42,202 bases of DNA from a virus (taxonomy: Duplodnaviria; Caudoviricetes): the IMG/VR virus record IMGVR_UViG_3300023283_000016, positions 1 to 42,202 of that record. The stretch is one strand, 5' to 3'. Made by a program: the position numbers and the translations under genes. Below the pieces are notes generated by a model, which was not told the DNA's origin, ran no database searches, and saw only the letters and a list, made by a program, of their open reading frames with translations. Below, piece by piece: positions 6,631-38,972 of the stretch (positions within the stretch are counted from its first letter, which is position 1; each line of letters opens with the position of its first letter).

Positions 6631-7427
6631 TGCGATTCAAACGCTCTATTCTGATCGACGGCGATATTGTTGCCTATCAGTTCGCGGCCCGCGCCGAAGA
6701 GCCGATTGAATGGGACAATGAGATTTGGAGTCTTCACGCCGACTGTGGCGCTGCCAAGGTTCAGGTATCCAACTACATTGACGAGTTGGCTGAGATGCTG
6801 GAAGCGGACAACGTGGTTGTGGCGCTGTCTGATCCTTTGCGGCACTATTTTCGCCATGACATCTATCCGGAAGCGTACAAGCAGAACCGGAAAGAGGCGC
6901 GTCCGCCTATTATCCTCAAGGCGATCAAGGAATACCTTGAGGGCAACTACAATTCCTACATTCGGCCGCGACTGGAAGCCGACGATATCCTCGGCATCTT
7001 GGCCACAAACCCCAAGCTGGAACCGTCCGCTGAAAAGGTAATCGTCAGTCTTGACAAAGACATGCTGACGCTGCCCTGTTTGCTGTTCAATCCGGAGAAG
7101 GCTGACGACGGCATCTGGGAAGTGTCCGAACAGGATGCGGATTGGTATTTCATGTATCAGACGTTGTGCGGCGACCCCACAGACGGCTACCCAGGGTGTC
7201 CGGGTGTTGGCCCAAAGACGGCCGCGAAGCTGCTTAAGGATGCTACAACGTTGAGCCAACAGTGGGCCGTTGTGGTGGACGCGTTTTGTAAGGCCAAGCT
7301 GAGTTACGCGGAAGCGCTTCGTAATGCGCGCATGGCTCGCATACTGCGGGCCTGTGATTACAACTTCAAGAAAAGGGAGCCGAAGCTATGGCAGCCGCCC
7401 AAGACACCGACCACGGATTCCGAGTGA
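6630..7427 (+). CDS. gp6: 5'-3' exonuclease, T7 gp6-like
   Basis: LIDGDIVAY, YKQNRK, LEADDILGI, SLDKDM and GDPTDGYPGCPGVGPKTA motifs. Confidence 0.95.
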   Translation: MRFKRSILIDGDIVAYQFAARAEEPIEWDNEIWSLHADCGAAKVQVSNYIDELAEMLEADNVVVALSDPLRHYFRHDIYPEAYKQNRKEARPPIILKAIKEYLEGNYNSYIRPRLEADDILGILATNPKLEPSAEKVIVSLDKDMLTLPCLLFNPEKADDGIWEVSEQDADWYFMYQTLCGDPTDGYPGCPGVGPKTAAKLLKDATTLSQQWAVVVDAFCKAKLSYAEALRNARMARILRACDYNFKKREPKLWQPPKTPTTDSE

Positions 7428-8326
7428 TGCCTACTGATCCCGCCGAGCGAAAGGGACATCCCATTGTGCGGGGGATGCTAGACTACTTTCCCGATGCGTG
7501 CGCGAAGGTCGCCGAACTGAGCCGCATCGGCAACGATCAACACAATCCCGGCCAGCCTATGCACTGGGCGAGGGACAAGTCGACGGATCATGCGGACTGT
7601 ATTGTTCGCCATTTGATTGATCGTGGGAAGCGGGACTCCGATGGCGTCTTGCACGATGTTAAGGTGGCGTGGCGCGCCCTGGCCAATCTTCAGGTGACAC
7701 TTGAAGAGCAGGATGCCGCGTCTGACGCTGATGGCAGTGCGTCCGCTGCGGCAGGTGACGCTGACCAAGTAAACAAGTCCCAAGAGAAATCGTCACTGGC
7801 ATCGTCGTGTCCTCAATATGTCAATGCGGGCGAGTATAGACCCCCAAAAGCGGGGGAGAACTATCGCAGCCGCTATACCGGAGATGTTTTGTTCGCCGAG
7901 AACGACTGGCCAGATAAGGTAAGCCGCTGCATTGTTCGCCCGCGCCGCGTGTACGTCGCTGGTCCCATGCGGGGATACCGCCTCTGCAACTTCCCGGCGT
8001 TCGACACAGCGGCGGGCAAGCTAAAGCTGGCGGGCTGGGACGTGGTTAATCCGGCTGAGCTAGACCGCGAGGCTGGTATTGATCCGGCCGAAGTTGACCA
8101 GATGGATGAGGCCCAACAGTCCCAGTTTTTGCGGGACTGCATGCGGCGAGATTTGCAGGAAATCTGTTCCTGTGACGCCTTGGCGCTTTTGCCGGGCTGG
8201 GAAGACTCTCATGGGGTCGCTGTGGAACTGCAACTGGCGAAGATGCTTGGACTTATGATTCTGGACGCCCGCACCTTGAGGCCGCTTGATCCGATTAAGT
8301 GCCACTCTAGGACCACGAAAGGCTAA
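7427..8326 (+). CDS. Fusion of a dATP/dGTP diphosphohydrolase-like (DUF5664-like) domain and a DUF4406/nucleoside-deoxyribosyltransferase-like domain
   Basis: N-terminus YFPDA...GNDQHNPG.PMHWARDKSTDHADCIVRHL...AWRALANLQ; C-terminus VYVAGPMRG..NFPAF...NPAELD...CDALALLPGWEDSHG..VE. Start at the TGATG overlap with the exonuclease stop. Confidence 0.75.
   Translation: MPTDPAERKGHPIVRGMLDYFPDACAKVAELSRIGNDQHNPGQPMHWARDKSTDHADCIVRHLIDRGKRDSDGVLHDVKVAWRALANLQVTLEEQDAASDADGSASAAAGDADQVNKSQEKSSLASSCPQYVNAGEYRPPKAGENYRSRYTGDVLFAENDWPDKVSRCIVRPRRVYVAGPMRGYRLCNFPAFDTAAGKLKLAGWDVVNPAELDREAGIDPAEVDQMDEAQQSQFLRDCMRRDLQEICSCDALALLPGWEDSHGVAVELQLAKMLGLMILDARTLRPLDPIKCHSRTTKG
8294..8311 (+). promoter_or_regulatory. 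Phage RNAP promoter at the start of the morphogenesis module
   Basis: ATTAAGTGCCACTCTAGG, one of five near-identical copies; T7-like layout of AT-rich 5' part, core and TAGG start. Confidence 0.85.
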
Positions 8327-10747: not shown

Positions 10748-11557
10748 ATGTCTGAATCGGTAGAGATTCCCACTGAAGACAGCGGCAATAAGTCTGTCGA
10801 AGATCAAGCCCAAGAGCAGAAGCAGGCGCAAGAGCAGCAGGCTGAAGCATCGCGGAAGGCCGGGGAAGGGCACGACGAGCAGCGACCCGAGTGGCTGCCT
10901 GAGAAGTTTCAGTCGCCCGAAGATATGGCCAAAGCCTATCAAGAGCTAGAGAGAAAGCTGGGCGAGAAGGCGCAATCCGAAGACTCTTCGGCGACGAACC
11001 AAGCTGACGAGAAGGGCGAGGGTTCGGAGGAAGACCAGTCGGATGAACAGGTCGCGAAGTTTGATCTAAGTAAGTACGACCAAGAGTTCCAAGAAACCGG
11101 CGATCTGTCGGATGACAGCCGCGCTGAATTGAAAAAGATGGGGTTCACGAAAGATCGTGTTGACACCTATCTCGCCGGGCTGAAGGCCAGCGACTCGCAG
11201 TATGAAGAGCAGGTAGTTGAAGTTGTTGGCGGGCGCGAGCAGTACGATCAGATGGCACAGTGGGCCAAGAATAATCTAAGCGCCGCTGAGCAGGAAGCCT
11301 ATGACGAAGCCGTGTCCAGCGGAAGCGTTGAGCAGGCCAAGCTGGCTGTCGAGGCGCTGAAGAATCGCTGGCAGGCGTCGGAAGGCGTTGATCCGAGCTT
11401 GATTCGCGGCAAGCCCTCGAACGAGCGAAGTGACGTGTTTAAGTCGTCTGCGCAGATTCGAGAGGCCATGCGCGATCCTCGCTACAAGAACGATCAAGCT
11501 TACCGACAGGCTGTAGACGCCAAGATCGGCCGTTCACCCATCTTTCAACTGAGCTAA
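10748..11557 (+). CDS. gp9: Capsid scaffolding protein, T7 gp9-like
   Basis: RPEWLPEKF..PEDMAKAYQELE, GG.EQY..M..WA and MRDPRYKND.AYR motifs. Confidence 0.93.
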   Translation: MSESVEIPTEDSGNKSVEDQAQEQKQAQEQQAEASRKAGEGHDEQRPEWLPEKFQSPEDMAKAYQELERKLGEKAQSEDSSATNQADEKGEGSEEDQSDEQVAKFDLSKYDQEFQETGDLSDDSRAELKKMGFTKDRVDTYLAGLKASDSQYEEQVVEVVGGREQYDQMAQWAKNNLSAAEQEAYDEAVSSGSVEQAKLAVEALKNRWQASEGVDPSLIRGKPSNERSDVFKSSAQIREAMRDPRYKNDQAYRQAVDAKIGRSPIFQLS

Positions 11558-11559
11558 CC

Positions 11560-11739
11560 ATGTTTGAGTTTTTCTCGGAGAACCGGGAAACTGTCTTGGC
11601 TATTGTCGTGGCCTCGCACGGCCTGGCTCTGGCCATCGTTAATATCACCCCGACTCCCAAAGACAACAAGATTCTCGCCAAGGTTTACCGCATCATTGAG
11701 ATGGTCGCGGGTATTGAAACCCGGCGAGTCAAGGAATAA
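11560..11739 (+). CDS. Putative holin-like membrane protein (59 aa, missed by ORF track)
   Basis: MFEFFSENRETVLAIVVASHGLALAIVNITPTPKDNKILAKVYRIIEMVAG...: hydrophobic helix plus TPTPKD turn, as in small phage holin-like proteins; 2-nt gaps to both neighbours. Confidence 0.65.
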   Translation: MFEFFSENRETVLAIVVASHGLALAIVNITPTPKDNKILAKVYRIIEMVAGIETRRVKE

Positions 11740-11741
11740 TC

Positions 11742-12059
11742 ATGCGAACCATTTTCATTTTGGTCCTGTCGCTGGTGGCTATCGGCTGTGCAAGCAATCA
11801 GCCGCAGCAGGGGCAGGAACAGACGGCGGACAAGATCAACTCGGAGCTTCAGGCGCAGGTGAATGTCTACCTGAATCCGAACGGCGACGGCCCAGCTTCC
11901 GAGAAGATGGCCGAGAGCGTTGACGTAAGCGGCTCCAACATCACTGTTGATTCGTCGGTTCAGGGCAGTTCCGAGCAGTCGGCGAAAGGCGCGACGGCTG
12001 GCAGTGCTGAAGCTGACGGCCAGGTTGACGCGCCGATCAGCGTGACGCCCGGCCCGTAA
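11742..12059 (+). CDS. Lipoprotein (possible spanin or superinfection-exclusion protein)
   Basis: Signal peptide MRTIFILVLSLVAIG followed by Cys (lipobox-like); AAGGA RBS. Confidence 0.7.
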   Translation: MRTIFILVLSLVAIGCASNQPQQGQEQTADKINSELQAQVNVYLNPNGDGPASEKMAESVDVSGSNITVDSSVQGSSEQSAKGATAGSAEADGQVDAPISVTPGP

Positions 12060-12071
12060 TGACGCCCACTC

Positions 12072-12257
12072 ATGCAGCGAAATCTGCGTGTGGGTCGAGG
12101 CTCTATAGCTATCGTCCCGTCATGGTGGGCGGCAACGCTCGGCAATGTCGATGCGAAGGCGGATTCTTCGGTTCTTATCCTTCCTGACGACAAATACACG
12201 CCGGAGCAGCTTATTGAAATGCTCCGGTCCAAAAGTAACGAGAAAACGGAAACCTGA
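12072..12257 (+). CDS. Hypothetical protein
   Basis: 61-aa ORF filling the gap before the ncRNA; weak RBS. Confidence 0.35.
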   Translation: MQRNLRVGRGSIAIVPSWWAATLGNVDAKADSSVLILPDDKYTPEQLIEMLRSKSNEKTET

Positions 12258-12333
12258 AATCGAGGAACACGAACGATCATCGTTTCCTTTCTCCGGCTTT
12301 AGCGTGGTTGAGCCGTAAATCAATCACGCCTCA

Positions 12334-12413
12334 GGGGCGCAGATGGCTTCGCCACTGAAGGAAAACCGCATGCGGTCCTTCGGTGTACCGGGGTTCAATT
12401 CCCCGGCGCTCCA
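12334..12413 (+). ncRNA. tmRNA tRNA-like-domain-only RNA (mini-tmRNA-like, alanine identity elements)
   Basis: Acceptor stem GGGGCGC/GCGCTCC with G3:U70 and discriminator A; stemless D-loop AGATGGCTTCGC; 10-bp helix; T-arm CGGGG-TTCAATT-CCCCG. No tag ORF and no encoded CCA. Confidence 0.8.
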
Positions 12414-12582
12414 TTTCGTTTTGGCTGTTCGGAGTTTGTTGCGACTTCGGCGCAAGCCCATCTTCTCTGTTGGACACCTGCGGGTGTCTGTTGATGGACA
12501 ACTTGATGTTGAAAAGCGGCGGACGAAGACAGCATCTCTCTGTAACACCCCAAAACTCCAAGAGACAACTGAATAGCGAGAA

Positions 12583-13533
12583 GTGGCTAACTACACTCCG
12601 AGTCGTCTTGGTGTAACTGACGCATCCACTGATGGGTCTTTTAGCCAGGACAACGAACTCTTTCTCAAAGTATTCAGCCAGATGGTGCTGACTACCTTTG
12701 AAGAAACAAACGTGATGGGCGCGCTGCATCGCCAGCGGAACATCACCAGCGGTAAGAGCGCCCAGTTCCCCGTCATTGGCACGACCACGGCCGAGTACCA
12801 CTCGCCGGGCGAGGAAATCAAGGGCAACTCGATCAAGCATAACGAGCGCGTGATTAACGTCGATGACAAACTCATCGCCCACGTCTTCGTTGACGAGCTT
12901 GACGAACTCAAGAATCACTACGAAGTACGCGCTGAGTATGCGTCGGTGCTGGGCCGGGCGCTTGCACTGAAGCAGGACAAGCAGCTTATGCAGCTTGTGG
13001 CTCTGGCTGCGCGTGCGTCCGCAACCGTCAACGGCGGCAACGGCGGCACGCAGCTTACCAACGCCAACTTCAAGACGGACGCTTCGACGCTGGCGGCTGG
13101 CCTGTTTGACGCAGCGCAAACGCTGGACGAGAAGGACGTTCCTGGTGAGAACCGTTATGCCGCGCTTCTGCCCGCGCAGTACTACCTGCTGGCGCAGAAC
13201 ACCGACGTGATTAACCGCGATTGGGGCGGCGCTGGTGCGTTCTCCGATGGTACGGTTCTTCGCGTGGCGGGCATCCAGATCGTCAAGAGCAATAACGTTC
13301 CCAGCACGAACGTGTCCGCGACCAGCGGCGAGAACAATACCTATGATGGTGACTTCAGCACCACTGCCGGTATCGTGTGGCATGAGTCCGCAGTCGGCAC
13401 GGTGAACCTGATGAACCTTCGTATGGAAACCGATTACCAAGTGCAGCGTCAGGGTACGCTCATGGTTGCCAAGTTCGCCAAGGGCCACGGCATCCTGCGT
13501 CCCGAGTCGTCTGTTGAACTGAAGACTGCGTAA
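12583..13533 (+). CDS. gp10: Major capsid protein, T7 gp10-like
   Basis: LFLKVFS..VLTTF, RNITSGKSAQFPVIG, NHYEVRAEYA..LGRALA, IVKSNNVP and GHGILRPE motifs. Confidence 0.97.
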   Translation: MANYTPSRLGVTDASTDGSFSQDNELFLKVFSQMVLTTFEETNVMGALHRQRNITSGKSAQFPVIGTTTAEYHSPGEEIKGNSIKHNERVINVDDKLIAHVFVDELDELKNHYEVRAEYASVLGRALALKQDKQLMQLVALAARASATVNGGNGGTQLTNANFKTDASTLAAGLFDAAQTLDEKDVPGENRYAALLPAQYYLLAQNTDVINRDWGGAGAFSDGTVLRVAGIQIVKSNNVPSTNVSATSGENNTYDGDFSTTAGIVWHESAVGTVNLMNLRMETDYQVQRQGTLMVAKFAKGHGILRPESSVELKTA

Positions 13534-13555
13534 TCAGAAAGTGGTGGAATAACTA

Positions 13556-13883
13556 ATGGCTAACGCCCTTACTCCGACTACGCTTCTGTCCGGTCAACAG
13601 TCAAACGGCAACGGTTCTGCGGTCGATCTCAATGGCGCTCTTCAGGGCGACAAGATCGGCATTTTTTGCATACGGTACATGGGACACCGCGACTCTTACG
13701 GTCGAAGTGTTGCATGACGGCACTAACTGGTTCACTCTGGACACGTTTACGGCCGATGGCTACTCGATGAAAGACGTTGTGGCGAATCATATTCGCGCGT
13801 CTGTGTCAAGCGCTGGTGCCTCGACCGACGTGAACTGTGACATCATTGGTGCGGATACCGGCATCAACGCAACCGACAACTAA
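13556..13883 (+). CDS. Putative capsid decoration/accessory protein, split by a +1 frameshift at the T6 run 13662-13667
   Basis: The ATG 13556 frame (MANALTPTTLLSGQQSNGNGSAVDLNGALQGDKIGIF) joins the next frame (AYGTWDTATLTVEV...) if one T is removed, giving 108 aa. Confidence 0.65.
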
Positions 13884-13919
13884 ACCTATTGTTGTTGGAC
13901 AGCAGTAACGACTCTCAAT

Positions 13920-13957
13920 GGGGAGCTTCTGGAACGCCAGAGGCTCCCCTATTTTTT
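13920..13957 (+). terminator. Intrinsic terminator at the T-phi position
   Basis: GGGGAGCTTCTGG-AACG-CCAGAGGCTCCCC hairpin followed by TATTTTTT, after the capsid genes. Confidence 0.9.
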
Positions 13958-13977
13958 AATCCAGCAAGGAAACCACT

Positions 13978-14565
13978 GTGGCTGTTACCTACACAACCAA
14001 ACTAGAGGCGGTCAACGTAATGCTGGCTGGCATTGGCGACTCGCCAGTGAACAGCCTGTCTGGCAGTACCAACGTCAACGTGTCTATGGCGGAAAACACC
14101 TTGGATGCCGTCAGCAAGGAAGTCCAGTTACACGGCTGGTATTTCAACACGGAGCATGACTACGAATTGACTCGCAATAGCAGCGATGAGATTGAAGTTC
14201 CGGCCAATGCCGGGCGAATCCAACTGGATAAGTGGGCATCGGGCAACAGCATTACGGATGCCATCGTCCAGCGAGACATGCGGCTGTATAACAAAGATGA
14301 CCACACGTTCACCTTCGAGGATTCGATAAAGGTGACAGTGGTTTGGCTCTACGACTTCACTGAGCTGCCTGAGCCAACCCGCCAGTACATTATGCGTCGA
14401 GCCACCCGCCGCTTCCAAGAGCAGCAAATCGGCTCCGCTGAGTTGTCGCAGTTCCATCTGCGGGATGAGCTTGAATCTGACGCTATAGCCGGTGAAGACG
14501 ACACGGATCGAGCGGACTACAACGCTCTGCTGGCTCCCGGCGTGCGTGACATTGTTCAAAGGTAA
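13978..14565 (+). CDS. gp11: Tail tubular protein A, T7 gp11-like
   Basis: TKLEAVNVML..IGDSPVNSL, VQLHGWYFN and FTELPEPTRQYI..RATRRFQ motifs. Confidence 0.93.
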   Translation: MAVTYTTKLEAVNVMLAGIGDSPVNSLSGSTNVNVSMAENTLDAVSKEVQLHGWYFNTEHDYELTRNSSDEIEVPANAGRIQLDKWASGNSITDAIVQRDMRLYNKDDHTFTFEDSIKVTVVWLYDFTELPEPTRQYIMRRATRRFQEQQIGSAELSQFHLRDELESDAIAGEDDTDRADYNALLAPGVRDIVQR

Positions 14566-23827: not shown

Positions 23828-25276
23828 TTGGCCGACTATACCGTAACGAACGCGGGCACGAGCGCCGCGAATCAAGATTACACGCAATCGGGGACCGATG
23901 GGAACGGGCGTCCGATCTATACCGGTGACACGAATAGTTACATCAAGCTACAGCATGGTGTTAGCCAGGCTACGTTCAGTGAAGCGTGGGTAATTGAGGA
24001 CACTTCGATCGGCGACCAACTGTATTACTCATCGGACTCCACCGCCAGTCTGCCTCCGGAAGAGACATACTCCCCGTGGCTAGGAGCGCCTCCCGGCGCA
24101 GATGTCGCGGCAGCCGATGGCGACACAACCGCTCCCACGCTGTCCAACGCATCCGCCACCAATATCGGCAACACAACCGTCGATGGTCAGGTCGACACTG
24201 ACGAAGGCAACGGAACGCTGTATGGCGTTGTGACTGCCGGCTCCGCGAACCCCAGCCAGGATGATCACACCGGCAGCGCGGATGTTGATTCAGCGTCTAC
24301 AACGGTGAGCAGCGCTGGAACCCAGACGCTGAGCTTCAGCGGGCTGACTGCCGCGACCAACCACTACATTCACTTCGTGCACGAAGACTCGGCTGGGAAT
24401 CAGTCGAACGTGGTTAGTACGTCGCAGTTCACCACCACCGGTGGCGACACAACCGCTCCCACGCTGTCCAACGCATCCGCCACCAATATCGGCAACACAA
24501 CCGTCGATGGTCAGGCCGACACTGACGAAGGCAACGGAACGCTGTTTGGCGTTGTGACTGCCAGTTCCACGAAGCCCAGCAAGGCTGAAGTGAAGGCAGG
24601 CCAAGATTACACCGGCAGCGCGGCTGTTGATTCAGCGTTTACAACGGTGAGCAGCACTGGAACCCAGACGCTGAGCTTCAGCGGGCTGACTGCCGCGACC
24701 AACCACTACATTCACTTCATGCACGAAGACTCGGCTGGGAATCAGTCGAGCGTGGTTAGTACGTCGCAGTTCACCACCACCGGTGGCGACACAACCGCGG
24801 ACGTAAAGGGGAACTCCACGTCTATTACGGATGGTGACTCGACGCCCGAAACCGGCGACGATACCGACTTTGGTACTATCGACAACGACACGACAAAGAC
24901 GCACACTTTCACGATTCATAACACCGGCAGCGGCGATCTAACGCTGTCGGGTTCTCCGAAAGTGGCTATTAGCGGCTCTAGTGCGTTCTCAGTGTCCGCC
25001 CAGCCGTCCTCGCCGGTTACGCCGAGCGGCAGCACGACGTTTGATGTTCAATTTGACCCCAGCGGCAGCAACCTTACTGATGCCACGGCGACCCTGAGCA
25101 TTGCCAACGATGACAGCGACGAAAACCCCTACACGTTTGACGTAAAGGGTTCGTCGGTCGCATCGACCTCTGGGAATCTCAAACACGCCCTGGTTGGTTT
25201 CAATGATTTCCAGAGCAACCTGGCAACGTCGGAGATCGCCGGTCTTAACGCATTTACCACAGCAGGAAAAGGCTAA
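23828..25276 (+). CDS. Putative virion adhesin with two FN3/Ig-like repeats and an ASH/choice-of-anchor-D-like Ig domain
   Basis: Two DTTAPTLS...FSGLTAATNHYIHF.HEDSAGNQS repeats; TDFG...THTFTIHNTGSGDLTL...F.VQFDP...LSIANDDSDENPYTF domain. Confidence 0.75.
   Translation: MADYTVTNAGTSAANQDYTQSGTDGNGRPIYTGDTNSYIKLQHGVSQATFSEAWVIEDTSIGDQLYYSSDSTASLPPEETYSPWLGAPPGADVAAADGDTTAPTLSNASATNIGNTTVDGQVDTDEGNGTLYGVVTAGSANPSQDDHTGSADVDSASTTVSSAGTQTLSFSGLTAATNHYIHFVHEDSAGNQSNVVSTSQFTTTGGDTTAPTLSNASATNIGNTTVDGQADTDEGNGTLFGVVTASSTKPSKAEVKAGQDYTGSAAVDSAFTTVSSTGTQTLSFSGLTAATNHYIHFMHEDSAGNQSSVVSTSQFTTTGGDTTADVKGNSTSITDGDSTPETGDDTDFGTIDNDTTKTHTFTIHNTGSGDLTLSGSPKVAISGSSAFSVSAQPSSPVTPSGSTTFDVQFDPSGSNLTDATATLSIANDDSDENPYTFDVKGSSVASTSGNLKHALVGFNDFQSNLATSEIAGLNAFTTAGKG
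24118..24798 (+). repeat. Near-identical tandem duplication (324 bp + 342 bp + 15-bp start of a third copy)
   Basis: Copies start at 24118, 24442 and 24784 with TGGCGACACAACCGC; the second copy is 18 bp longer. Confidence 0.95.
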
Positions 25277-25282
25277 ACAGTA

Positions 25283-27667
25283 ATGGCCTATTCGTTCGTT
25301 CTCTATGACGGCGACGGAACAACGGACACCTTCACAGTCCCGTTCGGCTTCATTAAGCGGGCCGACGTGGACGTGAAGGTGGCCGGTTCTTCCGTTGGCT
25401 TTTCATGGCTATCCGATACACAGGTCCAGCTAGACAGCGCGCCCGCGTCGGGGACCGACAATGTTCGCGTTGAGCGCACGACCAACCGAAACAACCGAGA
25501 AGTTGACTTCAGCAATGCGGCCACGCTGACGAAAACCGACCTGGATAACTCGGCGCTTCAGATGTTCTATCTGGCGCAGGAAGCGCTGGACACGGCCGAC
25601 GAAGATGCTCAGTTTGCGGACGCCGACACAGTGGATGGGGAGCATGCCTCCGCCTTTGCCGATGCGTCACACACGCATACCGAGTCGGAGATTACCGATC
25701 TCGGTAACTACCTTACCGACATCACTGGTGAGCCAGCGGGCGACCTTAGCGATGTTGTTGTGTCGTCGGTGGGTAACGGCGAAGTTCTGGTCTACGACAA
25801 TGGGACCGGAAACTGGATCAACCAGACGCTTGCAGAAGCTGGCATTGCGGCTACAGGCCACACGCATACTGAATCCGACATCACGGACCTTGGAAACTAC
25901 GCTGTCGTAGGCCACAGCCATGCAACCAGTGACGTGACCAGCGGAACCTTTGCGGACGCTCGTATTGCCGAGTCTAACGTTACTCAGCACGAAGGCGCGC
26001 TGACCGTTACTGAATCGCAAATCAGCGATCTCGGAAGCTATCTGACCGACATTACGGCAGAGCCGATCAGTGACCTTAGTGACGTGGTAATCACCACGGT
26101 TGGCGACGGTGAGATTCTTACATGGGACAACGCTAACAGCCAGTGGATCAATCAGACCCTCTCTGAAGCTGGCATTGCTCCATCTTCCCATACGTCCGAC
26201 ACCAGCAATCCGCACAGTGTTACCGCATCACAAGTGGGCAACACGACAGCCCAATGGAACGCCAATCAAATTAATGGCGTTGATGTTGATACGAGCGGCT
26301 TGGCGGACAACAAGATTCTCAAATACAACTCGGGTACGGGTAAGTTTGAGATTGATGACGATGTTGCGTCGGACGGTTCGGACACTGACCACGGCACGCT
26401 AAGCGGGCTTGGGGATGATGACCATACCCATTACGTCCACAACGACACCGCTCGCACTATCACCGCTGTTCACACGTTCAATCCATCGGCGGCAGGCGCG
26501 CCTTTCAGTCTAGGCGCAAACGCTACGGGTCAGCTTGTGACGGGCTTTAACGCCGACCAGTTGGACGGCAACGATGCGTCCGCCTTTGCCAATTCCAGTC
26601 ACACGCATGCTGCTGGTGACATCGACAGTGGCACGTTGGCCGACGCCCGCGTTGCTCAATCGAACGTGACGCAACACGAAGGCGCTTTGACTATCACCGA
26701 GTCCCAAATCAGCGATCTAGGAAGCTATCTCACTGACATCACTTCCGAAGCTATTGGCGATCTCAGTGACGTTGTTATCAGTACGCCTGCCGATAATGAA
26801 GTGTTGGCGTACAACAGCGGAACCGGAGAGTGGCAGAACCAGACTCCGGCTGAGGCCGGCCTGGCGAGCAATTCACACTCGCACACGCTCAGCGATCTTA
26901 ACAACGTCACGGTGTCCACACCCGCTGATGATGAAGTTCTGGCGTATGACAACGGAACGGGTGATTGGATCAACCAGACGCCTGCGGAGGCTGGACTGGC
27001 TTCTGCATCGCATACACACGCGGCGGGGGACGTTACCAGTGGAACGTTCGCCGATGCACGAGTGGCGGAATCAAATGTTACTCAGCATCAGGCGGCCATC
27101 GACCACAACACGTTGACCAATTACAACGTGGCTGAGCATCGTACTATCAATGATGCGGGTATAGGCACTACCGATCTGTGGAGTGCCGATAAGATTCAAA
27201 GTGAGCTAAATAGCGCCGGGAGCAACGACCATATTATACTTCGCGACGAGAAGGCCAGCGGCACAAATGGAGGAACGCTCACCAACGGCGACTGGCGAAC
27301 ACGCGATCTGAACACGGAAGTGCTGGATGAACCCAACGCTGCTTCCCTGTCGAGCAATCAGATCACCTTAGATTCCGGCACATACGCTGCGTGGATTACC
27401 TGCCCTGCTCATTCGGTCGGCCAGAACCGGGCCAGATTGCAAAACATCACCGATGGAATCACCCTTCTGCTGGGAACGTCGGAAGATGCTGGGACTGCCA
27501 ACCAGACCCTTCGCGGTGCGATTGTAGGCCATTTCACGCTCTCGGCGCAGAAAGTGCTGGAAGTGCAGCAGCAGGCCGAAAATTCACAATCTGACGTAGG
27601 TTTCGGAATCGCCTCCGGCTTCGCAACAGAAGTTTATACCGTCGTACATCTTAGGAAGGTCAACTAA
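25283..27667 (+). CDS. gp17: Tail fibre protein with T7 gp17-type N-terminal adaptor
   Basis: N-terminus YDGDGTTDTFTVPF.F...VRVERTT...VDF.NAATL...DLD...LQMFYLAQE; repeated HxH and DLSDV...GEVLxY..W.N modules. Confidence 0.9.
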   Translation: MAYSFVLYDGDGTTDTFTVPFGFIKRADVDVKVAGSSVGFSWLSDTQVQLDSAPASGTDNVRVERTTNRNNREVDFSNAATLTKTDLDNSALQMFYLAQEALDTADEDAQFADADTVDGEHASAFADASHTHTESEITDLGNYLTDITGEPAGDLSDVVVSSVGNGEVLVYDNGTGNWINQTLAEAGIAATGHTHTESDITDLGNYAVVGHSHATSDVTSGTFADARIAESNVTQHEGALTVTESQISDLGSYLTDITAEPISDLSDVVITTVGDGEILTWDNANSQWINQTLSEAGIAPSSHTSDTSNPHSVTASQVGNTTAQWNANQINGVDVDTSGLADNKILKYNSGTGKFEIDDDVASDGSDTDHGTLSGLGDDDHTHYVHNDTARTITAVHTFNPSAAGAPFSLGANATGQLVTGFNADQLDGNDASAFANSSHTHAAGDIDSGTLADARVAQSNVTQHEGALTITESQISDLGSYLTDITSEAIGDLSDVVISTPADNEVLAYNSGTGEWQNQTPAEAGLASNSHSHTLSDLNNVTVSTPADDEVLAYDNGTGDWINQTPAEAGLASASHTHAAGDVTSGTFADARVAESNVTQHQAAIDHNTLTNYNVAEHRTINDAGIGTTDLWSADKIQSELNSAGSNDHIILRDEKASGTNGGTLTNGDWRTRDLNTEVLDEPNAASLSSNQITLDSGTYAAWITCPAHSVGQNRARLQNITDGITLLLGTSEDAGTANQTLRGAIVGHFTLSAQKVLEVQQQAENSQSDVGFGIASGFATEVYTVVHLRKVN

Positions 27668-31839: not shown

Positions 31840-32020
31840 CCGCGAGATCGCGGACCTTCTGGCGTCTCTGGTGAGCCGCACGGCCCGCTCACGGACTCAG
31901 CATGCTGTCCAGCAGTATGTCCTTCGTACGGCAAGCACGATTCCCGGCGAGCCGGTGCACGACAGCGATCTGGCGGATCGGATTCGTCAACGCTTGCAAG
32001 AGAACAATCCGGATGCCTAA
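31832..32020 (+). CDS. Hypothetical protein
   Basis: MSDREIADLL...; overlaps both neighbours. Confidence 0.5.
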   Translation: MSDREIADLLASLVSRTARSRTQHAVQQYVLRTASTIPGEPVHDSDLADRIRQRLQENNPDA

Positions 32021-32942
32021 TACGCCGGCGATACGCCAAGGCGACTGTCTGGAAGTTATGAAGACGCTAGCCAACGACTCCGTTGATCTGGTCTTCACGT
32101 CCCCGCCCTACGAAGACGCCCGCACCTACGGCATCGACTACAAGCTTAAGGATGACGGGTGGGTATCGTGGGCGATCCCCCGCTTTGAAGAGTGCCTGAG
32201 AGTCAGCCGTGGGCTGGTCGCATGGGTAGTCGAAGGGAAGACCCGACGCTACCGCTATTCGCTGACGCCTATGAAGTTGATGCTGGCCCTCAATGAACGG
32301 GGCTACTGCGTCCGCAAGCCCCCGGTCTTTCACCGGGTCGGTATTCCCGGCTCAGGTGGTCCGGATTGGCTGCGGAATGACTATGAGTTCATCGTCTGTG
32401 CGACCCGCGAGCGCGGGCGGCTTCCGTGGTCGGACAATAAGGCGATGGGATCGCCGCCCAAGCACGCTCCGGGTGGGCCTATGTCGCATCGGATGCCGAA
32501 TGGACGCCGGGTGTTGCGAAAGACTACGACGCCCGGCAAGGACGGCTATATGGAACAGGGCTACTCCCCGCCTGCCAAGACCAATCCCGGCAACGTCCTA
32601 AGCCATTCTGTAGGCGGCGGGAAGATGGGCCATCCTCTCGCCCATGAGAACGAAGCCCCGTTCCCGCTTGCCCTGGCCGAGTTCTTTGTCCGCAGCTTCG
32701 CGCCACCCGATGGAACCGTCCTTGATCCTTTTGTCGGCAGTGGGACCACGCTACAGGCGTGCGCGGAAGCCGGACGGAACGGCCTTGGGATTGATCTGAG
32801 GGAGTCTCAGGTTGGTCTGAGTGCGCGTCGGCTGGCCAAAGATGCGTGTCCGTTCTGTGGCTTCGCGTTTAATCATGAATCCCTTGGTAAGTATGGCTGT
32901 CCGAATTGCGAAGGTGACCCGGACGCCGAAAAGGAAGGATGA
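32013..32942 (+). CDS. Amino-DNA methyltransferase (beta class, probably N4-cytosine) with C-terminal Zn ribbon
   Basis: GDCLEVM..L..DSVDLVFTSPPY (motif IV) precedes VLDPFVGSGTT (motif I); C-terminal CPFC...CPNC. Confidence 0.92.
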   Translation: MPNTPAIRQGDCLEVMKTLANDSVDLVFTSPPYEDARTYGIDYKLKDDGWVSWAIPRFEECLRVSRGLVAWVVEGKTRRYRYSLTPMKLMLALNERGYCVRKPPVFHRVGIPGSGGPDWLRNDYEFIVCATRERGRLPWSDNKAMGSPPKHAPGGPMSHRMPNGRRVLRKTTTPGKDGYMEQGYSPPAKTNPGNVLSHSVGGGKMGHPLAHENEAPFPLALAEFFVRSFAPPDGTVLDPFVGSGTTLQACAEAGRNGLGIDLRESQVGLSARRLAKDACPFCGFAFNHESLGKYGCPNCEGDPDAEKEG

Positions 32943-33579
32943 TCGATCCAACATCTACCGTCCTGTCACTGTGCGACCTAACGGGCGTCATGGTGAAACC
33001 TTGGGCGGACGCTGGATATCGGTGCATCTGCGTTGATATTCAAGAGCCGGATGACGACTGTGTTCACCACCCCCAACATTGAACACGTCACGGCCGACAT
33101 TAAGGACTACCTGCCCCCACTGGCCAACTACATGGCAGCCTTTGCGTTCCCACCGTGTACGCATACAGCGGTGTCCGGGGCAAGGTATTTCCAGAGCAAG
33201 GGGCCAGAGAGGGCTGCTGAAGCCTTCGCGGTGATCGCCCGGTGTGATCGCCTGATCCGATGGACAGGCGCACCTGGGTTCTTTGAGCAGCCTGTGTCTA
33301 CTGCTTCAACGTACTGCGGCAAGCCCGACGTTACGTTCAATCCGTGTGACTTTGCCGGGCATCTGTACGATCCATCCTTCGATGCGTACAACAAGAAAAC
33401 CTGTCTATGGACCTACGGAGGCTTCAAGCTGCCGTCCGTGCGGCCCGTTGAGCCGGTATCGGTGTGTAAGCAGGGCAGTTGGGTACAGAAGCTGGGCGGA
33501 AAGAGCGAGAAGACAAAGAGGCTGAGAAGTGCTACTCCGCAGGGGGCTCGCTGAGGCGGTCTTTCGGTCGCTATCGTAA
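32939..33579 (+). pseudogene. Phage C5-cytosine-methyltransferase-like gene with two +1 homopolymer frameshifts
   Basis: N-terminal VLSLCDLTGVMVKPWADAGYRCICVDIQ, catalytic-type FPPCT, FFEQPVS, YNKKTCLW, RSATPQG(LAEAVF). The frame is restored by deleting one C (33070-33074) and one G (33542-33546). Confidence 0.7.
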
Positions 33580-37831: not shown

Positions 37832-37898
37832 GTAATTCTTATTGGCCGATGGGTTTCATCATGCGCGCATTACTCTGCGAAAGGAAGGTTACTGTATT

Positions 37899-38972
37899 AT
37901 GGCGAAACGCCGTGGAAACAAATGGCAGGCCGACATAACGATTGATGGACAGCGGTTCCGCCAGACGTGTGACAGTGAAGACGAAGCGATTCTCAAAGAG
38001 GCCCAAATACTCTCAGATGTTCGTGCTGGTCGCACGCCCGATCTGAACAGCCGACCGGGACCACGAGGAACGATACGGCGCACCGGCAGACGCTCGGCGG
38101 CGACACTCACCGACTTGCTGTGGCTGACTTACCGCACCTGCTGGGCGGGCACTCGCAATGAAGATGACGCCTTCAAGAACGCCAGCGATTGCGTAGAGGC
38201 GCTGGGCGGGGACCGCCATCCGGCGCATATCACCACCGACGATGTTGACGAGATGGTGGCAACGTGGAGCAAGGCCACCACCTGGTCCAACAGCACCATT
38301 AATCGGAAGCTGGCGGCCCTGAGCAAGATGCTGACAATCGCCGAAGAGCGGGGCGTGATACGCCGGAAGCCGGTACTGCGGCGGCGTCGGGAACCCAATC
38401 ATCGCCTGCGGGTTCTGTCGGACGCCGAAGAGCGGCAGTTGCTGGACCATTTGATCGCCACCGGACGCCATGACGTAGCCGACTTGGTTATCATCCTGTT
38501 GGATACCGGGCTGCGGCTGGGCGAGGCTCTGGCGGTCCGATGGGCCGATTACGACGAGGGATGGATTCGCGTGTGGGCCAGCAAGAATGATCGTCCCCGG
38601 TCCATTCCGACCACCAAACGCGCTCGCGTGACTCTTAACCGACGCCAGGCCGAATACGGAAAGGACCATGACGGGCCGTTCACCATGCTGACGCCTTGGG
38701 CCGTCACGCGGGGCTGGAATGATGCCCGAGATGAGCTAGGAATGGACGGAGATAAACAGTTCGTTCCGCATGCCTGTCGGCACACGTTCGCTAGTCGGCT
38801 GGTGAGGCGAGGCGCTCCGCTGGAAACCGTCAAGGAACTGCTGGGCCACCGAAGCATCAGCATGACGCTTCGTTACGCGCACTTAGCGCCAAAGAATCTC
38901 AAGGACGCCACGGCGCTGCTTGACACAATGCCGCAGTTGGTGTCTTATTCCGTGTCCGAAGCCACGTATTGA
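37899..38972 (+). CDS. int: Tyrosine integrase
   Basis: N-terminal arm-binding-like RGNKWQADI; catalytic R (DTGLRLGE), K (SKND), HxxR (HACRH), H (LGH) and Y (RYAH); AAGGAAGG RBS. Confidence 0.96.
   Translation: MAKRRGNKWQADITIDGQRFRQTCDSEDEAILKEAQILSDVRAGRTPDLNSRPGPRGTIRRTGRRSAATLTDLLWLTYRTCWAGTRNEDDAFKNASDCVEALGGDRHPAHITTDDVDEMVATWSKATTWSNSTINRKLAALSKMLTIAEERGVIRRKPVLRRRREPNHRLRVLSDAEERQLLDHLIATGRHDVADLVIILLDTGLRLGEALAVRWADYDEGWIRVWASKNDRPRSIPTTKRARVTLNRRQAEYGKDHDGPFTMLTPWAVTRGWNDARDELGMDGDKQFVPHACRHTFASRLVRRGAPLETVKELLGHRSISMTLRYAHLAPKNLKDATALLDTMPQLVSYSVSEATY

Follow-up and report, generated by a model that had tools for sequence, protein, structure and literature searches.

Between the scaffold and capsid genes of a T7-like phage lie 80 nucleotides that resemble tmRNA's tRNA-like domain (TLD) without any mRNA-like domain, and the locus raises the question of whether this is a gene in its own right, a canonical tRNA or a decayed piece of host ssrA, and, if a gene, what a tmRNA, an RNA by which bacteria free stalled ribosomes, could do for a phage without its message. 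The window, by which we mean the whole stretch of 42,202 nucleotides analysed, is a virus record from IMG/VR whose completeness is rated at 100%, with a T7-like gene set (RNA polymerase, DNA polymerase, primase/helicase, portal, scaffold, capsid and terminase) and an integrase. Judged by its sequence and predicted fold, the element at 12334-12413 (Table 1) is a real TLD-only tmRNA gene of the kind carried by Mycobacterium phage DS6A, which is listed as 'TLD only' in passages of Hudson et al. 2014 (PMC4131195). It is as such a further case of a known but little-studied kind and not a new kind; specific to this window are the T7-like carrier, a genomic slot that some relatives use for tRNA genes, and natural base changes at A20 and G333.

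Table 1. Positions of the element, its parts and neighbours in the window, and of tRNA genes in the matching slot of related phages
Feature	Position	Strand	Basis or remark
TLD-only (CDS-less) tmRNA gene	12334..12413	+	G1 to discriminator A73; RF00023 49.5 bits; family model R1 69.7 bits, the window sequence being part of the training set of R1
Acceptor stem, 5' strand, G3 paired with U70	12334..12340	+	sequence, fold
Stemless D-loop, 12 nt	12341..12352	+	numbering check; contacts named in passages of PMC8363625
Helix 2, 10 bp (one G-U), 12353-12362/12376-12385	12353..12385	+	fold, family parse, RNAalifold
AAA bulge closing helix 2	12363-12365	+	sequence, fold
Cap hairpin CCG-CAUG-CGG, in place of pseudoknots and tag ORF	12366-12375	+	common to DS6A and pSt2308
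Linker UAC, 3 nt	12386..12388	+	middle A = A334 (SmpB pocket); first base U where G333 is expected
T-arm, 5 bp and 7-nt loop UUCAAUU	12389..12405	+	sequence, fold, numbering check
Acceptor stem, 3' strand (12406-12412), and discriminator A12413	12406..12413	+	sequence, fold
Head scaffolding/assembly gene, upstream of element	10748..11557	+	phrog_1052, E 8e-57
Small ORF ending 76 nt before element	12072-12257		
Major capsid gene, start 170 nt downstream of element	12583..13533	+	phrog_267, E 1e-78; 59% to Roseobacter CRP phages
17-nt motif, copy nearest upstream of element	8294..8310	+	5 matches in window against 0.13 expected
Integrase	37842-38972		
tRNA-Asn in pre-capsid slot	L242:2140-2215, L247:2170-2243		LUZ100 (OP329100), RHEph21 (MW980070)
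tRNA-Met and tRNA-Asn in pre-capsid slot	L009:702-934		related T7-like phage L009

Class assignment and structure

The Rfam check proposed in the first-pass annotation places the element in the standard tmRNA family: RF00023 matches at 12334-12416 with 49.5 bits over a cut-off of 47 (E 7e-18), spanning model positions 1-374 without truncation, and about 294 consensus positions covering the pseudoknot/tag region are missing, a small hairpin standing there instead with 13 nt between the helix strands. ARAGORN called 0 genes, gathering-mode cmscan over the whole window missed it, and an Rfam scan of 11000-14000 displayed no separate tRNA-family or permuted-tmRNA row, one lower-scoring overlap of the same clan not being displayed. 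The complete TLD is present in standard 5'-3' order and matches the tmRNA model, the pseudoknot/tag region is absent with helix 2 closed by a short cap like that of DS6A, and the alanine identity elements G3:U70 and A73 are in place. Other class assignments were tried and rejected. A standard tmRNA capable of trans-translation would need a resume codon, tag frame, stop and pseudoknots, and none is present where the 294 model positions are missing. In a permuted two-piece tmRNA a CCA-ended acceptor piece is followed by an intervening sequence and a coding piece, and the element has standard order and closes on itself. A canonical tRNA, a match to which had been named beforehand as a sign of a decayed remnant, was found neither by ARAGORN nor in the fold, which has no D-stem and no 5-bp/7-nt anticodon arm. 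An attP fragment of ssrA was set aside on the presence of the whole TLD and the distance to the integrase.

All structural parts named in the first-pass annotation are found at the positions it gave, and the TLD-only identity that it proposed is borne out by the Rfam match, by covariation in the family and by G3:U70; its quoted consensus, GGxUUCGA...GAC, has to be corrected, since the element reads GGCUUCGC...UAC. The 83-nt stretch from 12334 folds with a minimum free energy (MFE) of -40.3 kcal/mol (z -3.51), and none of 200 shuffles was equally stable, which is more than chance would give. In the single-sequence MFE structure the D-loop closes into a 3-bp hairpin; in the register of the family, with one unpaired base past UUCG and a 3-nt linker, pairing reaches 94%, as against at most 49% off the diagonal, and the stemless D-loop originally described is therefore favoured. 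CCA is not encoded, UUU following directly after A12413, so that it would have to be added to the RNA. A misassembly deletion as the origin of the short form was also considered: in run X1 a single contig covers 12054-13309, and thus spans the element, with zero differences from the window, and this was taken to reject it, with the qualification that the run may come from the source sample and so is not independent support.

The SmpB contacts named in passages of PMC8363625 are A15, U17, C18, G19 and A334, and a TLD fragment similar in size to the element, of 25 + 34 nt, has been crystallised with SmpB (PMC3985003, passages, which also set out how trans-translation proceeds). With position numbering checked on the commonest 360-nt tmRNA of the full-length band, taken as the E. 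coli type, U12349, C12350 and G12351 correspond to U17, C18 and G19, and A334 is kept as well. Position 15, an SmpB pocket base, is C in the element, as in 17 of 100 full-length tmRNAs, among which this position varies too. The departures are at A20 and G333, which have become C and U: A20 occurs in 100/100 full-length tmRNAs vs 81/94 short forms (mini-tmRNAs), and the C20/U333 combination in 2/94 of the latter, in which A334, left unconstrained by the search pattern, is kept in 92/94. Because C20/U333 is rare among the minis and A20 universal in the full-length sample, SmpB may bind the element more weakly.

A covarying family in viruses and bacteria

A search of 31 of the 64 parts of IMG/VR with a pattern requiring two conserved tmRNA ends 22-52 nt apart returned 120 loci, from which about 250 are estimated overall. 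With the window included, 96 distinct mini sequences of 62-92 nt were obtained, with peaks at 63-67 and 75-81 nt, and the next spacing band (53-83 nt apart) gave 21 matches across the whole of IMG/VR, a few of them tRNA artefacts; the lengths form a discrete class. One full-length band (295-325) is estimated to hold some 960 matches, many near contig ends, and these are probably host ssrA at prophage borders. Longer members of 95-123 nt (L390-L410) have the same frame with varied inner arms, and loci L416-L421 score 59-80 bits in the family model. The cap resembles a motif at nt 55-95 in 25/100 full-length tmRNAs.

The three helices of the family covary. When 99 family rows, window included, were parsed by sequence anchors alone, all five pairs of the T-stem were paired in 99/99 rows, acceptor pairs 5-7 in 99% against a shuffle maximum of 68%, and helix-2 pairs 2-7 in 91% against a shuffle maximum of 51%, the shuffles taking no account of the relatedness of the sequences; most free helix positions have at least 4 pair types. 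When RNAalifold was applied to the 73 sequences that are 75-85 nt long, 10/15 pairs showed changes on both sides. Position 70 is U in 95/96 distinct copies though the pattern permitted C. The search pattern itself required GGGG, UUCG and the T-loop, whose conservation is as such not evidence.

Gene contexts in the family vary widely, and include replication genes, methylases and tRNA arrays, with a few carriers in head modules (L069, L073, L102, L112, L213). The 98 neighbour proteins, one of them an integrase, revealed no conserved partner. Separate tRNA genes lie nearby in 20/80 flanked viral loci and CCA is encoded in 39/96 distinct copies, and tRNA-type processing therefore fits the family. 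No smpB was found in the window, in the 50 larger carrier records chosen from the 120, or in the 16 of those that are at least 90% complete, so that any SmpB partner would be that of the host. Unannotated copies scoring 66-73 bits are present in the Streptomyces phages pSt2308, Shaeky, BRock and LuckySocke and in Stenotrophomonas virus Jojan60; the cultured-phage copies (L238, L411, L412, L413 and L414) lie mostly within tRNA arrays, as in Shaeky, BRock, LuckySocke and pSt2308. In PA_L9 there was a partial match of 26 bits only. The DS6A element (tmRNA Website tmID 11587; JN698994, L239:1979-2058) is 80 nt long and scores 56 bits in a family model that was not trained on DS6A.

In 185,579 GTDB genomes the same pattern matched 57 stretches, among which two Microvirga matches proved to be acceptor pieces of permuted tmRNA genes, and so false, and were removed; 35 of the 57 reach 44 bits or more where the pattern matched and are credible, and the remaining 20 stay below this and are for the most part tRNAs. 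Many of these short forms are on small MAG contigs and several are beside phage genes or tRNA arrays, a separate full-length tmRNA is present in 25/35 of the genomes, and two cultured isolates carry full-length ssrA on a different contig. In one Saccharibacteria MAG a TLD-only tmRNA of 70 nt, whose gene includes the CCA (L194:3324-3393; G057:C12), lies in a housekeeping neighbourhood, about 580 nt from smpB; no full-length tmRNA was found in this incomplete 0.5-Mb MAG, and one is present in 17/20 relatives. Elsewhere, a 69-nt form lies beside an Obg GTPase gene (L182, G051), and in genome G090 the only form is one of 79 nt at a contig end. A chromosomal tag-less tmRNA in CPR bacteria is possible.

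Genomic setting and T7-like relatives

A 17-nt motif occurs in five plus-strand copies in the window, at 8294, 30305, 39479, 39505 and 42145, two of them in tandem directly ahead of the polymerase gene. It is probably a promoter for the phage RNA polymerase and would as such drive the late operon. No copy adjoins the element or lies directly before the capsid gene. A strong terminator-like hairpin is found at 13920-13949 in a scan of 11500-14000, an interval in which sigma-70 and terminator matches are at chance level; with no motif copy beside the element and sigma-70 matches at this level, a promoter dedicated to it was rejected. With the nearest motif copy at 8294 and the hairpin beyond the capsid gene, the RNA of the element would accordingly be released from the longer late transcript. 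The leader at 12414-12600 downstream of the element has no clear structure (z -1.74). The RNA polymerase is nearest to those of Ralstonia and Desulfovibrio phages (41%) and the integrase to that of LUZ100 (36%); looking up a host by att site with one short motif gave no fragment of the T-loop type. Elsewhere in the window there are long direct repeats at 24114-24798 in a 482-aa ORF and at 25620-27087 in the tail fibre gene (94-97% and ~70% identity), two DNA methyltransferase-like ORFs, and a dATP/dGTP diphosphohydrolase-like domain fused to DUF4406 in another ORF (31902-33554, 7388-8326).

The first-pass annotation had also called for a comparison of scaffold-capsid intervals from related phages, and the outcome is divided: covarying homologs exist across phages, but none was found in the related loci compared. 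Scored with the family model, 59 viral loci related by capsid, 8 cultured relatives and 80 metagenome loci related by portal gave no copy (0/147); they are only 39-59% identical to the window at the protein level. In 117 of the 147 the sequence shows where the capsid gene starts together with 500 nt or more upstream, and ARAGORN found no tRNA in the slot of 114 of these, with real tRNA genes in the remaining three (Table 1). In RHEph21, a Rhizobium phage, the tRNA-Asn is followed by a second tRNA-like element (L247:2246-2315), which is unannotated, has an odd anticodon loop and is missed by ARAGORN. T7-like core genes were found at none of the flanked carrier loci of the mini-tmRNA family, and the window phage is the only T7-like carrier found in a sample of these loci and the 147 relatives, in line with the remark on T7-like phages in the first-pass annotation. 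Absence from the related loci indicates that the element is dispensable for the lineage; it is an accessory gene of sporadic occurrence, and its slot tolerates RNAs of the tRNA type.

Possible roles and comparison with known systems

There is about an even chance, in our estimate, that the element acts as a chargeable, SmpB-binding competitor of host tmRNA which would reduce degradation tagging during infection. Structure and conservation are observed, and from them we infer every functional step. The element would be transcribed within the late operon, its 5' end cut by host RNase P, its 3' end trimmed and CCA added; AlaRS would charge the RNA via G3:U70, and it would then bind host SmpB and EF-Tu. 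SmpB would thereby be titrated, or non-stop ribosomes would be entered and the nascent chain taken, or both. With no reading frame to resume, no tag would be added and release would be left to drop-off or backup factors, and the net effect would be fewer tagged proteins from truncated phage mRNA, or a blunted tmRNA-dependent host response. Published work speaks to such inhibition: according to passages of PMC4131195, citing Mao et al. 2009, a molecule similar to that of DS6A strongly inhibits tmRNA whether chargeable or not, perhaps via SmpB titration, and passages of Nawrocki et al. 2025 (PMC11915505), citing the same work, describe inhibition of endogenous tmRNA in E. coli for the form from DS6A. 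In view of this precedent the first-pass annotation overstated the novelty. Against the competitor reading stand the C20/U333 change and the C at position 15 of the element, as well as its absence from the 147 related loci. Since the reported inhibition was independent of charging, pure titration leaves the conserved G3:U70 unexplained, and this conservation fits productive tag-free rescue too.

In such productive rescue, which we consider rather unlikely, alanyl-mini-tmRNA and host SmpB would free non-stop ribosomes while leaving the protein unmarked, and late translation capacity would be kept, as proposed for CDS-less organellar tmRNAs. G3:U70 in 95/96 copies speaks for charging and for entry into the ribosome, CDS-less tmRNAs and SmpB co-occur in mitochondria (PMC11915505, passages), and the element lies directly upstream of the capsid gene. 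Without a stop codon, however, the peptidyl-RNA needs another route of release, a limit raised in passages of PMC11915505 as well, and the DS6A-type RNA is reported as an inhibitor. The Saccharibacteria case, with its short form near a chromosomal smpB, is easier to reconcile with rescue than with inhibition, but it is one incomplete MAG whose relatives mostly have full-length tmRNA. The SmpB/EF-Tu decoy and the tag-less rescue suggested in the first-pass annotation are the best supported of its four roles, and they would probably overlap. Its proposal of a decoy for defence nucleases, in which the RNA would absorb or substitute against host nucleases or sensors of tRNA or tmRNA like other phage tRNA genes, we regard as improbable. 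Frequent placement in tRNA arrays and the tRNAs in the pre-capsid slot of LUZ100, RHEph21 and L009 are in keeping with it, and the patchy distribution would be typical of accessory counter-defence genes; no partner gene is conserved among the neighbours, however, and the anticodon loop, the usual target of tRNases, is missing from the element. SmpB-like domains have been predicted in CoCoNuT systems (PMC11090510, passages). In the literature covered, no defence system is shown to target the TLD.

Even less probable is that the element is an attP site, or what is left of host ssrA after deletion and decay, without function as RNA. The phage does have an integrase, ssrA 3' ends are common att sites, and the element departs from A20/G333. 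The integrase is far off, however, and insertion at the element would split the late operon; both halves of the TLD are present, paired and compensated family-wide with discrete lengths, 1/98 neighbours is an integrase, two cultured isolates have full-length ssrA on a separate contig, and the cap is common to DS6A and Streptomyces phages, so that for the family this reading is largely refuted. Least probable of all is a purely cis-acting processing signal, in which RNase P and 3' trimming would part the capsid mRNA from the late transcript lying upstream, the RNA itself having no role in trans. The short distance to the capsid start, the tRNAs in the same slot of three relatives and the few other carriers in head modules would suit such a signal, but any tRNA would serve, which leaves the kept G3:U70 and A334 unexplained, and the slot is without an ARAGORN tRNA in nearly all relatives in which it is visible. 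Because gene contexts vary widely, most of them being unrelated, the capsid-mRNA punctuation proposed in the first-pass annotation is weak as a family function; processing of the capsid mRNA may be a side effect of the element.

A single strict pattern leads to an estimate of about 250 IMG/VR stretches, which puts the size of the family far above that of the curated record, where 9 'standard, no CDS' entries stand beside 72 permuted no-CDS entries among 97,179 tmRNA sequences (PMC11915505, passages). Its members escape ARAGORN and whole-window gathering-mode cmscan, and no description of a large phage mini-tmRNA family was found in titles and abstract openings, a search in which most subscription journals are outside coverage. 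The organellar and DS6A cases pose the question of whether a message-less tmRNA rescues ribosomes or merely blocks rescue, which is directly testable because LuckySocke (Streptomyces lividans) is among the cultured carriers, and the family touches on the wider question of why phages carry tmRNA. A bolder view, which we hold as tentative and somewhat unlikely, is that phage mini-tmRNAs would be widespread, overlooked viral RNA effectors that hijack host SmpB for tag-free rescue and shield phage proteins from proteolysis, serving perhaps as the sole tmRNA in some small-genome bacteria, with the window extending the class to T7-like phages.

The closest known system is DS6A, whose element shares with ours the length of 80 nt, the standard order, G3:U70, the stemless D-loop, the T-arm, the lack of encoded CCA and a helix 2 closed by an AAAA-CCG-CAYG-CGG cap. 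The helix sequences differ, C20/U333 belongs to our element, and the DS6A element is just upstream of a gene annotated as DNA polymerase III, in contrast to the scaffold-capsid interval of a T7-like podophage with an integrase. The tRNA-Asn genes of LUZ100 and RHEph21 occupy the same slot in related T7-like phages, also with integrases; they are canonical cloverleaves with an anticodon, whereas the element has neither D-stem nor anticodon arm and is uncalled by ARAGORN. With standard bacterial tmRNA (RF00023) it has in common the acceptor stem, G3:U70, A73, the UUCG D-loop, helix 2a, A334 and the T-arm, but it is without pseudoknots, resume codon, tag ORF and stop, is 80 rather than ~360 nt long, and is altered at A20/G333. 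CDS-less organellar tmRNAs, described in passages of PMC11915505 from jakobid and oomycete mitochondria (RF02544) and, at ~65 nt, from Mallomonadaceae plastids, likewise consist of a TLD without a tag frame. They are the organelle's own tmRNA, with targeted SmpB in mitochondria, and most no-CDS entries are permuted (same passages); unlike these, the element is viral, in standard order and presumably extra to the tmRNA of its host.
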